Assembly (NCBI RefSeq): GCF_002087085.1
Contig: NZ_MWQY01000004.1
Span: 1 to 64,000 of the forward strand
Length of the DNA stretch: 64,000 bases
Reading direction: 5' to 3'
Position numbers and translations under genes: made by a program. Below the pieces are notes generated by a model. That model was not told the DNA's origin, did not search any database, and saw only the letters and a list, made by a program, of their open reading frames with translations. Shown here piece by piece: positions 1,174 to 55,300 of this stretch; position 1 is the stretch's first letter, and the number at the start of each line of letters is the position of its first letter.

Positions 1174-1344
1174 ACATAACATCCAATTGAGCTGTGTGGC
1201 GTTAAGCTGGCATGTGTTTGTGCTGCAACTCTTATACATTCTACTACGATTTCTACCCGGAATAACCTGAAATATTCAGTCACCTGGTTTACCTACTGCT
1301 CAAACCATGACAGTAGCCACATCTGCTCCAATTGCTGGTTATAT
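1174..1344 (-). repeat. attC site of cassette 2 (171 bp)
   Basis: R'' ATATAAC contains the TAA stop of ORF 1339-1650; 5-bp spacer; L'' ATTGGAGC has one extra base versus L' GCTCAAT; R' GTTATGT; long imperfect inverted repeat. Confidence 0.95.
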
Positions 1345-1650
1345 TGCCCTCTCTTCCTTCAGCAGCCTGAACGACTTAATGATCTCATCCTTCTCAAATA
1401 GCTGATTTGTAATGTATTTATGAAGCACCGTTGTAATAAGCGTTTGGTACGGTAACCCTTCCTGTTCTGCCTTCTCTTTTAGTTTTTCTAAATCATAATT
1501 TGAAATTCTTAGGCTTATCGCCTTATTTTTCTTGGCTCCAGCTATTATGGATTCGACCTTCTTTCTCTTTTCACCTGTGACGGATCGATAGGTGTCAATT
1601 TCATTTTCTATTTTCTTCTCTTCAGCAGTAAGGTTATATCTTCGTTTCAT
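1339..1650 (-). CDS. antitoxin, CopG/RHH (BrnA-like)
   Basis: KNKAISLRISNYDLEKLKEKAEQEGLPYQTLITTVLHKY ribbon-helix-helix pattern; directly after the toxin gene. Confidence 0.85.
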   Translation of the reverse strand: MKRRYNLTAEEKKIENEIDTYRSVTGEKRKKVESIIAGAKKNKAISLRISNYDLEKLKEKAEQEGLPYQTLITTVLHKYITNQLFEKDEIIKSFRLLKEERAI

Positions 1651-1651
1651 A

Positions 1652-1918
1652 TCATTTCCTTCGATATTTCTTGTGGTATTTTCGACTCTGATAGGCAGTC
1701 TTCAATACGATATTATCATCCTCATCTATTATGAATGGGACAATCCACGTATAGTCTTGTATTTCCATCACAAAATACATCTGCCCCTCACGTACTGGAT
1801 TCTCAATAATATCCATGTACATTCCATCCATAATCATCTGACTTATTTCATCAAAAGAGATATTTCTCTCTAAAATGAGTTTTTCATTTTTTTCTTTATC
1901 CCAGATGATGGAATTCAT
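1652..1918 (-). CDS. BrnT-like ribonuclease toxin
   Basis: WDKEKNEKLILERNISFDE N-terminus and LKTAYQSRK C-terminus, typical of BrnT-like toxins. Confidence 0.82.
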   Translation of the reverse strand: MNSIIWDKEKNEKLILERNISFDEISQMIMDGMYMDIIENPVREGQMYFVMEIQDYTWIVPFIIDEDDNIVLKTAYQSRKYHKKYRRK

Positions 1919-1923
1919 ATCTA

Positions 1924-1952
1924 ATAATACTTTATCGTATATACATTGTCAA
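1924..1952 (-). promoter_or_regulatory. sigma70 promoter of the TA operon with a palindromic operator
   Basis: TTGACA (1952-1947), 17 bp, TATTAT (1929-1924); GTATATAC palindrome at 1937-1944 in the spacer; ATG 5 bp after the -10. Confidence 0.85.
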
Positions 1953-2245
1953 CCTTATTCAAACACACATGCAACGTCTTTATACATCGAAAACAGCTAT
2001 GCAGGTGCTTTTTAATACTCAGAATCATACAGCGTCTTTACACCATTTTTACCTGGTTGAAGGTGTTAAATTCTTATTCTTCTTTTCAATATGCATTTTT
2101 TTAAGATGTATCGTTTCAAGTTATCACATCTGTGATTCATCAACACCGTTAACCGGCCTTCTTCAATTCTTCTTTTTATTTCTCTAAGTGTAAGCATTGT
2201 TCCTGTGCATTTGTCTTTGATGTCCCTAACTTCTTCCCTGGGTCA

Positions 2246-2416
2246 ATATAACACCCAGTTGAGCTGCAAACCGTTAAGCTGGCGCAGTTTGTGCCTCAAT
2301 CGTAAACAGTATAACTCCACTTATAATCAAGAACAATCGAAAACTATTGTTCCCCATTTTCACGAGCCTGCACAAACTGTGACAGTAGGTTTGTCTGCTC
2401 CAACTGCAGGTTATAC
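2246..2416 (-). repeat. attC site of cassette 1 (171 bp, diverged)
   Basis: R'' GTATAAC, L'' GTTGGAGC, L' GCTCAAC, R' GTTATAT; same length as the other full copy, with compensatory stem changes. Confidence 0.93.
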
Positions 2417-2676
2417 TGCGCTGATCCCCCAGGCAGAAGAACCATTTTTCGAACCATGAGGAGAATTTCCATCGAACACCGAAAAATAGTCTCAAAGGAA
2501 AAGTGCGTTTGGCCGTAGCGTGGCCATTAATTGCGTTGGGTTGCGTGCAGGCCTTTGCGTGGCTGCGTGGCCAGGCGTTGGCCAGCGATAGGCCTTAGTG
2601 TAATCTCGATAAACTTTCGTTATCGAATTCCCTCTTCCTTTCCTTCTTCGAAGTCCCCAAAAAAGTGTCTGTATAA
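2252..2676 (-). mobile_element. integron cassette 1, ORF-less
   Basis: Bounded by attI core GTTATAC (2677-2671) and matching R'' GTATAAC (2416-2410); no ORF of 60 aa or more lies wholly inside. Confidence 0.8.
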
Positions 2677-2710
2677 CATATTCTACCCACTACTTTTGTC
2701 CTATTTTAAC
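2671..2710 (-). other. attI site (recombination core GTTATAC)
   Basis: Core site complementary to R'' of the first cassette, ~150 bp upstream of intI; a second GTT-heptamer (GTTAAAA) at 2710-2704. Outer boundary uncertain. Confidence 0.75.
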
Positions 2711-2825
2711 CTCTTATCATCTGAATGCGCAATTATTTTACAAAAACGGCGTTCAAAGTAAAAGCATTCAACATTAGCTATGGTTTTAAACAATAGAAAC
2801 TATTGTTCTCCGGAGGTCAATATCA

Positions 2826-4070
2826 ATGGACCAGGAAGTGTACGGTCGATACATTAATTATCTCCAGAAATATCATAAGATAAAAGAGAATCACCTTTCC
2901 TGGTACCTCCATTGGGTAAAGAAATATATCAACTATTGGAATAACGATAAGAACTACCTCAAGGACGACTCAATCCGGAGATATTTTCAATTCCTTGCAG
3001 ACCGGTATGAACCATGGCAGGTAGAGCAGGCTGCCGCGGCGATTCGTCTTTTTGTTCATTACATGAACAAAATGGAAAATAGCGCAAAACTACAGAAACC
3101 GGGGAATTGGCCGGAGGTTCTGGATAAGATGAAGTCTGAGCTCAGGGTGCAGAGCAAGTCGTATAGAACAGAGAAAACCTACCTCTACTGGGTCCGCGAT
3201 TTTTCCCGATGGCGCAACCCTAAAAACCCGGATCAACTTGGATCTGACGATGTCCGCGCTTACCTCACCCATCTTTCAATCAACCGTAACATATCCTTTG
3301 CAACTCAGAAACAGGCTTTTATCGCTTTACTGTTTTTATTCCGTCATGTTTTAAATATAGAGATAAATGGCCTCGAATCAGTGGTCCGAGCCAGAGTAAA
3401 TAGAAAACTCCCTGTCGTTCTTTCTCCATCCGAGATATCAGGGATCTTACAATATGTGCCTGAAGAATACCGTCTGATGTGCCGCATTATCTATGGGGGC
3501 GGACTTCGACTTTCAGAATGTCTGGAATTAAGAGTAAAAGATGTCGATATCGACGGCGGATCAATCATTATCCGTTCTGGTAAAGGTAATAAAGATCGCC
3601 TGACCTTACTCTCACGGTCGGTGATTCCGGATTTACAGAAGCACATTGTAAAAGTCAGACAGTTATACGAGTCTGATCGCCTTGAAAAATTGCCAGGTGT
3701 ACCTCTGCCTTTTGCATTGCAAAAGAAGTACCCTCAGGCATCTACGGAATGGAACTGGTTCTGGATCTTCCCTTCCCCCCGGTTTTCGGTGTGTCCGCGG
3801 ACCAATCAGCCAGGCAGGTTCCATGTGTTTCCATCAACTCTGCAGCACGCCTTTCATGAAGCGCTGAGAAAATCCGGAATCCCAAAGAAAGCAGGCATCC
3901 ATACCCTGCGACATAGTTTTGCGACACACCTGATAGAGGCAGGTTATGATATAAGAACAGTACAGGAACTGCTCGGCCATTCGAACCTAAGTACAACAAT
4001 GATCTATACCCACGTAGCCACAAAGAATAAGCTCAGTGTAATCAGTCCCATGGACAAAATGGACATCTGA
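2826..4070 (+). CDS. intI: integron integrase (long form)
   Basis: Tyrosine recombinase motifs GLRLSE, HTLRHSFATH, LGH...TTMIYTHV plus the IntI-specific insert GVPLPFALQKKYPQA...WFWIFPS; GGAGG SD. Confidence 0.97.
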   Translation: MDQEVYGRYINYLQKYHKIKENHLSWYLHWVKKYINYWNNDKNYLKDDSIRRYFQFLADRYEPWQVEQAAAAIRLFVHYMNKMENSAKLQKPGNWPEVLDKMKSELRVQSKSYRTEKTYLYWVRDFSRWRNPKNPDQLGSDDVRAYLTHLSINRNISFATQKQAFIALLFLFRHVLNIEINGLESVVRARVNRKLPVVLSPSEISGILQYVPEEYRLMCRIIYGGGLRLSECLELRVKDVDIDGGSIIIRSGKGNKDRLTLLSRSVIPDLQKHIVKVRQLYESDRLEKLPGVPLPFALQKKYPQASTEWNWFWIFPSPRFSVCPRTNQPGRFHVFPSTLQHAFHEALRKSGIPKKAGIHTLRHSFATHLIEAGYDIRTVQELLGHSNLSTTMIYTHVATKNKLSVISPMDKMDI

Positions 4071-4150: not shown

Positions 4151-4213
4151 GCTCAATATAAAAGCATTGTTCCCCATTTATTGACCAGAACAATGCGGGG
4201 CTATTGTTCTGCC
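4151..4213. repeat. tandem GAACAAT-N8-ATTGTTC-like palindromes, copy A
   Basis: GCTCAAT-N8-ATTGTTC at 4151 and GAACAAT-N8-ATTGTTC at 4188; aligns with 8873-8937. Confidence 0.55.
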
Positions 4214-53932: not shown

Positions 53933-55300
53933 CTATAGAGGGATTCCATAGGGGCCGTCTTTCAGATAGGCGATCCGCGGTTCGCCGGACCCCGTGTAAA
54001 GCTCTTTCAGTTTATCGATTCCGGCGGCCACCAGCTTCGGCACCAGGACCTCCGGATCTGCAGATTCAGGTATACCCGCCATTTCAGATAACCTGGAACC
54101 TGCGGTCAGCTCATACTCGGCATCGCCGAACTGGGGGCTGTAATAGTAAAAGTGATCGATGGGAATCTTTTTGAAGAGGCGGGTCCACATCTGCACCTGC
54201 CACTGCTCCGGAATAAAGGTCCAGTCCGGAGAGAGAAGAATCTTTTCCACCGCCTCGGGACCGCTGAGAGTAAGGATCTGAAGCACCGTCTTGTAGGCAA
54301 GACTCCCTATTGGATCGGTATCGGTATTGTCGGCGAGCATTATTACGTGCCCCCCGGGCTTGATGATCCTGGCAGCCACGGTTCCCGCCTTGGCAACCTG
54401 GTAATGGTTGATCCCCACAAAACCGCCGTGGCTCAGCACGATGTCGTACTGCCCCTCGTAGGGCACGGCGGTATAACTCTTAAGATGCTCCACCGCCGCC
54501 TCATGGGCAGCCTTCAGCTCTCCTGCGAATACCCCGGTTACCTTGAACTGATGGTCCAGGGTAACGTTGACGATATAGTCGGTACCGGCGGTGCTGGCGA
54601 CCTCGAAGGACTCTTCGTGGCAGGGGTTACCCTCCAGAAGCAGGTCCGTGGTGTTCGGATGCGCCATCATGGGGGCTCCGTGGAACACGAAGGTGCTCTC
54701 TTCGCCGATGAGACCGGGACAGATCGATTTTCGTCCCCCTGACGCACCGGCCATGAAGTGGCTCTCCACAAGGCCGGTGAGGATCCGTATATCGCTCTCC
54801 ATATAGAACCTGTTGATGTAGATTTCACTGCCCCGGGCAGTCGTACCCAGGTAGCTCAGGCCCTTGTCATTCTTGCAGTTGTGGTTTTTCACCTGAACCC
54901 CGGCGTCCAGTACCCGGGGATCGATCATCTTCGAGATTTCCGCCTCGGTCAGCCCCCGGTGCATACCGGTGGCCACAAGAACGGTTATTTTTCCAGCCCT
55001 GACCCCCTGTTTCAACAGGCGATCCACGAGGGGCCAGAGGATTCCCTGATCCCCGGTGTATGGAACAGGACGCGTATTATCGGAGATTACGATCACCGCC
55101 GTTGGATCATCGATCTTCTCCTTCTTTTTTCGGATTATCTCGTCGATTCCCGGGCCGCCGATGGACGAGTCCAGGGCCTCCTGAATTTTCTGAGCCGGAT
55201 TGTCCAGGGCGACAGGACTGCCCATACTCAGGATGTCTACCTCGTCTGGAAGTTCCAGAGCGATATGTCTGCTGCCGAAGGGCAGATCAGTTTTCTGCAT
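53933..55300 (-). CDS. LarA-family nickel-pincer 2-hydroxyacid racemase/epimerase
   Basis: SDNTRP, ATGMHR, HFMAGASGGRKS; start at ATG 55300. Confidence 0.9.
   Translation of the reverse strand: MQKTDLPFGSRHIALELPDEVDILSMGSPVALDNPAQKIQEALDSSIGGPGIDEIIRKKKEKIDDPTAVIVISDNTRPVPYTGDQGILWPLVDRLLKQGVRAGKITVLVATGMHRGLTEAEISKMIDPRVLDAGVQVKNHNCKNDKGLSYLGTTARGSEIYINRFYMESDIRILTGLVESHFMAGASGGRKSICPGLIGEESTFVFHGAPMMAHPNTTDLLLEGNPCHEESFEVASTAGTDYIVNVTLDHQFKVTGVFAGELKAAHEAAVEHLKSYTAVPYEGQYDIVLSHGGFVGINHYQVAKAGTVAARIIKPGGHVIMLADNTDTDPIGSLAYKTVLQILTLSGPEAVEKILLSPDWTFIPEQWQVQMWTRLFKKIPIDHFYYYSPQFGDAEYELTAGSRLSEMAGIPESADPEVLVPKLVAAGIDKLKELYTGSGEPRIAYLKDGPYGIPL

Follow-up and report, generated by a model that had tools for sequence, protein, structure and literature searches.

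Non-coding integron cassettes of one family stand directly behind attI in three related spirochaetes

The DNA considered here, hereafter the window, is the whole stretch of 64,000 nucleotides (nt) at positions 1 to 64,000 of contig NZ_MWQY01000004.1 (NCBI RefSeq assembly GCF_002087085.1), read on the forward strand. Near its left end lies a chromosomal integron, made up of an integron integrase gene (intI), its attachment site (attI) and an array of gene cassettes, the first of which (cassette 1) carries a body, or cargo, without any sizeable open reading frame (ORF) and is the subject of this work. The genome of the window is designated G000, and two congeners holding copies of the same cassette family are designated G002 and G004. 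The features of the locus are collected in table 1.

Table 1. Features of the integron and of cassette 1 in the window (aa, amino acids).
Feature	Position	Strand	Description
intI, integron integrase gene (414 aa)	2826..4070	+	TIGR02249; Pfam Phage_integrase, Phage_int_SAM_4
attI and intI-attI intergenic region	2678..2825		promoter-like site on minus strand; palindrome 2788-2808
Cassette 1, full extent	2676 down to 2252	-	cargo 2417-2676, attC 2252-2416
Cargo of cassette 1, non-coding family body	2417..2676	-	no contained ORF >31 aa; full-length homologues of 69-98% identity
Cassette 5' end	2657..2676	-	rest of R' box (TTATAC), AGACAC, T run 2659-2664; best conserved segment
Purine tract GAAGAAGGAAAGGAAGAGGGAA	2628..2649	-	can pair with 2485-2494
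Hairpin TCGATAAC-GAAA-GTTTATCGA	2606..2626	-	present in window, kept in most copies
C-rich GGCC/CGC core	2504..2594	-	repeat region; least conserved segment
Pyrimidine tract CTTTTCCTTT	2485..2494	-	CTTTTCC invariant in 12/12 copies
3' domain, blocks TTCGA-GGAAATTCTCCTC and ATGGTTC-N5-ATGGTTC	2417..2484	-	mean pairwise identity 0.80-0.81
attC of cassette 1 (165 nt, long subtype)	2252..2416	-	R'' GTATAAC 2416-2410, R' G at 2252
Cassette 2, BrnT-like / CopG-type toxin-antitoxin pair	1180..2251	-	Pfam; outside the element

The intI product scores 403.7 bits against TIGR02249 (cut-off 265), the model spanning residues 98-412, and the gene is transcribed away from the cassettes, both being divergent as in canonical integrons. 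An extra stretch of approximately 97 residues at the N-terminus of the integrase (2826-3116) gives a weak second Phage_int_SAM_4 match (23.8 bits, cut-off 27). The array runs leftwards from a crossover at G(2677)|TT(2676), its cassettes being read on the minus strand, and the GTT crossover at the start of cassette 1 stands 149 nt upstream of the intI start codon. All parts of its attC were found (R'' GTATAAC, L'' CTGCAGTTGGAGC, L' GCTCAACTGGGTG and R' GTTAT), and in one family copy of G002 (G2_d) the R' and R'' boxes covary, GTTATGT being found with ACATAAC. Cassette 1 adjoins intI and attI, is bounded by G|TTRRRY, possesses its own attC and is mobile: it is an integron gene cassette. Since the window opens at a contig end, inside another attC, the draft assembly (79 contigs) does not contain the array in one piece. 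The cassettes have a G+C content of about 26-41%, against 53% for the genome; the cargo of cassette 1 is not AT-rich, and its core reaches 61%.

A first-pass annotation, made from the letters of the window, had described an ORF-less cassette in the first slot, and both parts of this description hold. Indeed, the cargo lies directly behind attI and contains no ORF of 60 aa or more, the longest one contained being 31 aa; three ORFs overlapping the cargo extend into attC or attI (2205..2459 and 2531..2761 on the plus strand, 2274..2495 on the minus strand). The motif counts of that annotation were all correct on recount. GGCC occurs six times (2511, 2522, 2550, 2569, 2580 and 2591), three start-to-start gaps being of 11 nt, i.e. 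with 7 nt between sites; GCG occurs eight times in 2505-2585, seven of these being GCGT (ACGC on the cassette strand); and TCGA occurs five times (2449, 2472, 2606, 2623 and 2648). Compared with 1000 dinucleotide-preserving shuffles of the 92-nt core, the window copy is enriched in GGCC (6 versus a shuffle mean of 1.3), in ACGC (7 versus 1.6) and in GCC-N0-3-CGC (6 versus 1.0), none of the shuffles reaching these counts, and CGC alone is not enriched (8 versus 6.4; 140/1000 shuffles reach it). Elsewhere in the window, matches to the cargo do not exceed 18 nt, and no origin for it was found there.

Cassette 1 very probably belongs to a family of paralogous, clade-restricted non-coding integron cassettes, each member consisting of a cargo of approximately 260 nt and a dedicated attC of approximately 165 nt. 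The homologue search proposed by the first-pass annotation found this family in three genomes and in metagenome contigs, its hosts being a few related spirochaetes: G000 holds four copies (the three others at 98, 92 and 85% identity to that of the window, two of them in tandem), G002 five (90, 87, 85, 71 and 71%) and G004 a single one (82%). No copy was detected in 57 other relatives, out of 60 searched (E ≤0.01), a weak 24-nt match in G021 not representing a copy, and a profile hidden Markov model search gave no additional copies in the genome. When metagenome contigs were scanned with a specific pattern, all three matches were true family members; a looser pattern, applied to a species-genome collection, gave at least 112 matches, of which 111 are due to chance and one is identical to the G004 copy. 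Plasmid, phage and viral-contig collections contained no family match. The alignment used hereafter comprises 12 distinct copies, two records identical to the G004 copy having been excluded. The mobility attributed to the cassette by the first-pass annotation is thus confirmed, as the cargo is found behind attI in three genomes and behind different attC sites in eight other copies. Roughly 20 attC-bearing units can be detected in the draft G000 assembly, about 4 of them family members; 40 kb of the G002 array contains at least 18 such units, of which 5 belong to the family.

Copies align over their full length, with insertions and deletions of 1-4 nt scattered through the core, and reading frames are broken between them. 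No frame is common to the 12 copies on either strand; a hydrophobic-looking 31-aa frame on the plus strand is interrupted by a stop in one copy and by a 1-nt deletion in another. None of six incidental ORFs matched Pfam, no translated search of the full protein database having been made. By the ORF criterion of Boucher et al. 2006 (no ORF >150 bp in the body), cassette 1 is a non-coding cassette, and the family is paralogous and genus-restricted, with several copies per array and close homologues in relatives only.

Beyond being repeated in the arrays, the family holds the first slot of every integron of this type. The IntI proteins of G004 and G002 are 91% and 71% identical to that of the window, those of the three other congeners 43-46%. 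In all three genomes with this IntI type (G000, G004 and G002), a family member lies directly behind attI and the same histidine-kinase gene adjoins the integron; the three distant congeners have another, gene-bearing first cassette and no family copy. G000 and G002 have different cassettes in the second slot, and the G004 contig ends before it. Between G000 and G004, the first-slot cargoes are 0.825 identical, compared with 0.896 for intI over all sites and 0.72 at its four-fold degenerate sites; between G000 and G002, the corresponding values are 0.691, 0.719 and 0.444. The attI-intI intergenic region (0.813 and 0.704) and the attC of the first-slot copies (0.952 and 0.929) complete this comparison for the same two pairs. 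First-slot cargo divergence thereby parallels that of intI while being slower than that of its four-fold degenerate sites. In a maximum-likelihood tree, the window copy groups with the G004 copy (95/98 support) and the G002 first-slot copy falls in an outgroup pair (97/98), as the integrases predict. Because the first-slot copies track intI, yet change more slowly than silent sites, their divergence argues for constraint on the first-slot cargo rather than for recent capture. The view that this cassette, being next to attI, is the most recently integrated one does not fit with a family member in that slot in three of three genomes and a divergence parallel to that of intI.

Conservation is unevenly distributed along the cargo. 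Mean pairwise identity is highest at the 5' end with its T run (0.92; at least five consecutive T in 12/12 copies), and then decreases through GGCCAAACGC-CTTTTCC-GAGACT (0.84), ACACTAAGGCC...CTGGCC and TTCGA-GGAAATTCTCCTC (both 0.81) and the hairpin (0.78) to the central part of the core (0.70). When only the three first-slot copies are compared, identity in this last segment (alignment columns 106-170) falls to 0.46-0.59, near the silent-site figures. What is kept in the core of 12/12 copies is its composition (C 0.38-0.41, C/G 1.29-1.70). It is apparently composition, and not sequence, for which the C-rich core is required. GGCC is enriched in 10/12 copies (≤11/1000 shuffles) and GCC-N0-3-CGC in 11/12 (≤40/1000); ACGC ranges from one to seven per copy and exceeds shuffles (≤5/1000) in 3/12 only. 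The proposal that ACGC is displayed for protein titration finds no support in the family: the motif is not kept, and the core is the least conserved segment. Accordingly, the combination of GGCC and ACGC characterizes the window copy together with its closest relatives, ACGC not being kept in the family. An ssoA-like TAGCGT motif in the core was also considered and rejected, as by eye it occurs only in the closer copies and is absent from G004, G2_d and G2_e.

The first-pass annotation had also read the cargo as a structured RNA, a reading that the alignment does not favour: the covariation terms of RNAalifold are unfavourable for both strands (+1.82 and +1.14 kcal/mol). Whole-cargo folding energy is unremarkable on the cassette strand (z = -1.73, 11/200 shuffles as stable) as on the other (z = -1.13, 23/200). 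In the cassette-strand consensus, 4 of 48 pairs change on both sides, two of them belonging to the attC R'/R'' pairing. Consensus pairing on the alignment slightly exceeds that of shuffled alignments (93.7% versus 92.8% of cells paired, 6/500 reaching it), and so do the both-side changes (4 versus 2.1 expected, 31/500) and the covariation score (0.109 versus 0.096, 13/500), an excess which proves little because only 12 related sequences are compared. For the GAAA hairpin, 88.9% of cells are paired versus 85.0% in shuffles (23/500 reach it), one pair occurs as four pair types (AU, GU, GC and UA) and two mismatches are found in two copies; its score is not distinctive, 47/500 shuffles reaching it. 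The purine tract and its partner, which pair in the minimum-energy fold of the window copy, form a helix (helix 3) that is 90% paired with a single pair changing on both sides. Folded individually, the cores of the 12 copies have no common architecture, with energies from -24 to -42 kcal/mol and about -30 kcal/mol for 94 nt. Two further structural candidates were discarded: a long minimum-energy helix between blocks of 2417-2484, by eye absent from G004 and G2_d, and the idea that the hairpin imitates the integrase R-box duplex, the AAC/GTT triplets being altered in 7/12 copies. The remark of the first-pass annotation that no known family was recognised stands as regards Rfam, the cargo of the window being unmatched at E up to 10; at seven loci with other copies, no Rfam match was found in the cargo at E up to 1.

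The sequence in front of the cargo suggests how it could be transcribed. A promoter-like site, TTAAAA-18-TAGAAT, the only one to recur among the genomes, extends on the minus strand from 2709 to 2680 within attI; the identical site is present with the same geometry in G004, and G002 has TTAAAA-18-TATAAT, again with the same geometry and with a 10/12 consensus match. Because its -10 element ends 3 nt before the crossover box, the predicted start falls at about the first base of the cassette. In consensus scans, no promoter-like site of at least 9/12 was found in the cargo or attC of G000, G004 and G002, and no terminator-like site was predicted there; the best alignment-conserved cargo site, TCGATA-18-TACACT, reaches 8/12 and is present in 7/12 copies. 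Rho is encoded in the genome (707 bits, cut-off 509), and the core shares with a Rho utilization (rut) site an excess of C over G in 12/12 copies, but it contains 23-31% G and is predicted to fold stably; similar windows make up 0.7% of the genome. For class 1 integrons in Escherichia coli, which cassette comes first is described as setting the expression of the next one, and the drop in expression as growing with the untranslated length (PMC11511950).

Our preferred explanation, given a probability of roughly one in three, is that the attI promoter transcribes the cargo into an untranslated RNA or leader, which acts on the expression of the array. With a family member directly behind attI in the three genomes of this integrase type, the conserved sigma-70-like attI promoter would start transcription at about the first cassette base, and an untranslated RNA of roughly 260-430 nt would be the sole product of the first slot. 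This RNA or leader would act in cis on the array. As an insulator, a long untranslated first cassette (about 430 nt) would damp read-through to the cassettes behind it, and a newly captured cassette, inserted between the attI promoter and the element, would be expressed alone. The conserved blocks outside the core would then be recognition or processing elements of the cargo RNA.

Several points weigh against this proposal. The transcript, with its ends and its strand, is a prediction, and the attI promoter is a consensus match that overlaps attI and could be conserved for recombination. Polarity caused by an untranslated leader needs no specific sequence, so insulation by itself leaves the conserved blocks unexplained; moreover, internal copies with no promoter upstream keep the same blocks. 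The core, self-complementary and with 23-31% G, is a poor fit to a Rho loading site. Cassette 2 would not depend on read-through, having a promoter of its own (TTGACA-17-TATTAT, read from the sequence). The argument from divergence is itself open to objection: cassette 2 is 91-94% identical between G000 and G002, for only 72% in intI, and some family copies of these two genomes form near-identical pairs in the tree, from which it follows that cassettes pass between these species. Transfer or gene conversion could thus account for part of the conservation, or inflate the apparent constraint, and orthology among the first-slot copies may not be strict.

The main rival of the leader proposal is a selfish, recombination-optimized cassette, excised and re-inserted at attI more efficiently than others, whose conserved ends, and perhaps inner blocks, serve recombination. 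We regard this as a possible, somewhat less probable, explanation. The abundance of the family in G000 and G002 fits with it, re-insertion at attI alone would yield the first-slot position, and each first-slot copy has a related internal copy (the window copy and C75a at 98%; G2_d and G2_e as sisters). The most conserved parts are the ends next to R' and R'' (0.92) and the attC (0.93-0.95), the family has an attC subtype of its own and, on the bottom strand, the cargo ends (2417-2424 with 2661-2670) extend the R''/R' stem of the circularized cassette by five pairs, one of which covaries, from C-G to T-A, in 4/11 copies. Selfishness is also an option named for Vibrio non-coding cassettes by Boucher et al. 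2006 (PMC1382264). However, it leaves unexplained the conserved inner blocks located 60-200 nt from either end. Frequent re-insertion also predicts likeness to copies of the same genome, whereas the observed pattern parallels the integrase, and the first-slot copy of G002 belongs to the most divergent lineage rather than to the abundant one.

Other explanations appear less convincing. One of them is a trans-acting small RNA (sRNA) or a protein-titrating RNA, the latter put forward by the first-pass annotation; single-stranded blocks would pair with messenger RNAs or bind a protein, and either the blocks CUUUUCCUUU and UUCUCCUC, which resemble an anti-Shine-Dalgarno sequence, or the GCC..CGC units are candidates for this. 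The invariance of CTTTTCC, the retention of TTCTCCTC in 8 of the 11 copies reaching it, the enrichment of GCC-N0-3-CGC and GGCC in most copies and the precedent of the cassette-encoded sRNA Xcc1 of Xanthomonas (cited in PMC4909258 and PMC6557892) are in its favour; we nevertheless hold it to be unlikely, given that ACGC is not conserved, that the repeat core is the most variable part, that neither a promoter nor a terminator of its own is predicted, and that Rfam matches are lacking and covariation terms unfavourable. The one long match elsewhere (E = 0.08), 18 perfect nucleotides between 2422-2439 and contig C6 of G000 (54033-54050), where it lies antisense to an Hsp70-like ORF, is probably due to chance, because the block differs in four deeper-branching copies and in G2_d (C75b, G2_b, G2_c, MG128 and G2_d). 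A ToxI-like antitoxin is not supported either: Tandem Repeats Finder gives a single 8-nt unit repeated twice, and no neighbouring gene, toxin gene included, is constant downstream of the family copies. Slightly more doubtful still is a promoter cassette, whose cargo promoter, sense or antisense, would drive neighbouring cassettes or intI, or interfere with them. Of 29 gene-less Vibrio cassettes, most are reported to have sense promoter activity, in-silico promoter prediction being described as unreliable for them (PMC11014356), and the first-slot ORF-less cassette TMB4 of Treponema is reported as active as a promoter on both strands (PMC6557892); yet the cargo contains no site of 9/12 or better in the three genomes, its best conserved site stops at 8/12 in 7/12 copies, and its core has 61% G+C.

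That the cargo acts at the DNA level, with GGCC/CGC units or TCGA bound as double-stranded DNA by a protein or serving as restriction-site decoys, seems improbable. It would account for the motif enrichment of the window copy and for a unit spacing that by eye is of 9-12 nt, but the spacing of A/T shows no periodicity above the 95% shuffle threshold, at 10-11 nt or any other tested value, in 12/12 copies, and the motif positions are not conserved. The decoy suggested by the first-pass annotation further conflicts with the genome, which avoids neither GGCC (observed/expected 0.87) nor TCGA (1.28), nor GCGC, TTCGAA or TGGCCA (0.87-1.28 for the whole set). Finally, that the cargo is the remnant of a decayed gene or encodes a short peptide is very improbable. 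Chance ORFs of 20-83 aa do occur in single copies, and a 20-aa ORF on the plus strand is similar in 5/12 copies and extended in two more, but indels that are not multiples of three, a stop and frame changes separate the copies, the six ORFs submitted to Pfam (the full protein database was not searched) remained without match, and substitutions follow no codon-like pattern.

The attC of the family shares a palindrome with the surroundings of the integrase gene. GAACAAT-N7/8-ATTGTTC has nine sites in the genome, versus one for the reversed control. It forms the tip of the attC of cassette 1 (GAACAAT-N8-ATTGTTC at 2331-2352) and lies at the attC tip of every family copy of G000, i.e. in four attC sites. 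Two further sites lie on either side of intI, one (2788-2808) immediately 5' of its ribosome-binding site and the other (4188-4209) some 120 nt past its stop codon; a 14-nt stretch beside the palindrome is common to the attC and to 4166-4179. The same three placements, around intI and in attC, exist in G004. Across approximately 60 kb of sampled arrays, the palindrome is confined to family attC sites, 9 of the 10 seen carrying it. Other positions in G000 are C41:1459, C75:196206, C75:196631, C32:420 and C32:3018; at locus L135, the palindrome stands at 132, 584 and 1973. One could imagine from this distribution that the whole cassette, cargo and special attC together, is a fixed regulatory module, for which the first slot would be reserved as a promoter-proximal non-coding element across the divergence of at least three species, and which a shared palindrome-binding factor would couple to integrase control, the extra N-terminal SAM-like domain of the integrase being a candidate for this factor; we consider such a module unlikely. 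Away from intI, two of the palindromes flank a low-G+C island in G000 (C32, 420-3040; L136); this island contains three ORFs and one or more attC-like sites (one at about 2355-2460) and may be a cassette cluster without integrase.

The closest known kinds are the paralogous, genus-restricted non-coding cassettes of Vibrio and the promoter cassettes. Gene-less cassettes are given as 6-49% of Vibrio arrays; they are described as often paralogous, with close homologues only in other vibrios and similarity over the whole length, and are read as being under purifying selection or gene conversion, the discussion by Boucher et al. 2006 leaving undecided whether they are selfish or useful to the integron (PMC1382264). 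The present family resembles them by its lack of ORF, its several copies per array and its homologues confined to relatives. Unlike them, it is hosted by a spirochaete lineage, occupies the position behind attI in each of the three integrons of its type and diverges with the platform, and has its own long attC subtype, the palindrome of which also flanks intI. The points added here are first-slot occupancy in every integron of the type, divergence with the platform, and a family-specific attC. Elsewhere, ORF-less cassettes in the first slot are noted as rare (1/42 and 1/5; PMC6557892), and saliva metagenomes contain ORF-less cassettes in first and other positions (PMC4909258).

With the promoter cassettes of Vibrionaceae (Blanco et al. 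2024, PMC11014356) and of oral Treponema (Tansirichaiya et al. 2019, PMC6557892), the family has in common the absence of ORF and a regulatory effect as the leading idea; with TMB4 of Treponema (PMC6557892), it also shares the first slot, here next to the attI promoter. Unlike in promoter cassettes, no promoter-like site is predicted in the cargo. As for sRNA-Xcc1 of Xanthomonas (cited in PMC4909258 and PMC6557892), the product would be an RNA; there is, however, no sequence relation, nor is a promoter or terminator predicted in the cargo. Like the systems invoked by the first-pass annotation, namely CsrB/RsmZ and ToxI, the window copy repeats short motifs within about 90 nt. CsrB and RsmZ are protein sponges, and ToxI is a type III antitoxin RNA. 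Unlike the former, the cargo family does not conserve its motif in number, place or sequence and has no covarying hairpin-loop displays; unlike the latter, it has no exact tandem units (of approximately 36 nt in the type) and no adjacent toxin gene.

The standard integron model is summarized as 'last in, best expressed'. The family provides a compact comparative case, in which the first slot of three related integrons is non-coding and changes more slowly than intI silent sites while the second slot varies. If the first-slot element is functional, integrons can keep their best-expressed position for a regulator instead of the newest gene, and the standard model would need modifying; if selfish re-insertion is the true explanation, the family would illustrate cleanly how the integron system can be parasitized.

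Behind cassette 1, the toxin-antitoxin pair of cassette 2 has two full-length copies in G002, 91.3% and 93.8% identical (L131 10348-11419 and L132 7951-9023), one of which directly follows the family copy G2_a; the succession of family element and cassette 2 is thus seen again in G002. This level of identity points to cassettes, or a block of two, having been exchanged recently between the species. Two members of the family are interrupted. In the C41 copy of G000 (L003/L134 311-1385), an IS30-like transposase gene (HTH_38 and rve) stands between cargo and attC, and another copy, in G002 (L015, from 1709 onwards), is cut inside its 3' domain by a group II intron (RF02001, 71.6 bits) oriented as the cassette strand.

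Parts of a 601-nt stretch occur in 20 sequencing-run entries, which come from 13 studies. In the four runs examined, a 213-nt metatranscriptome contig (X20, depth 4) covers 2429-2601 with 13 differences; no inference is drawn from it, as a contig assembled from an RNA library may stem from carried-over DNA and is no proof of transcription or of a transcript's strand or ends. Lastly, in the distant congeners G005 (L142, approximately 1140-1560) and G003 (L140), cassettes open with the 13 nt GTTATGTAGACAC of the G002 first-slot copy and then carry an unrelated conserved leader (...CTTGGTAACTTCGGCTATTCGCG...), which in G005 lies ahead of a BrnT-like gene.

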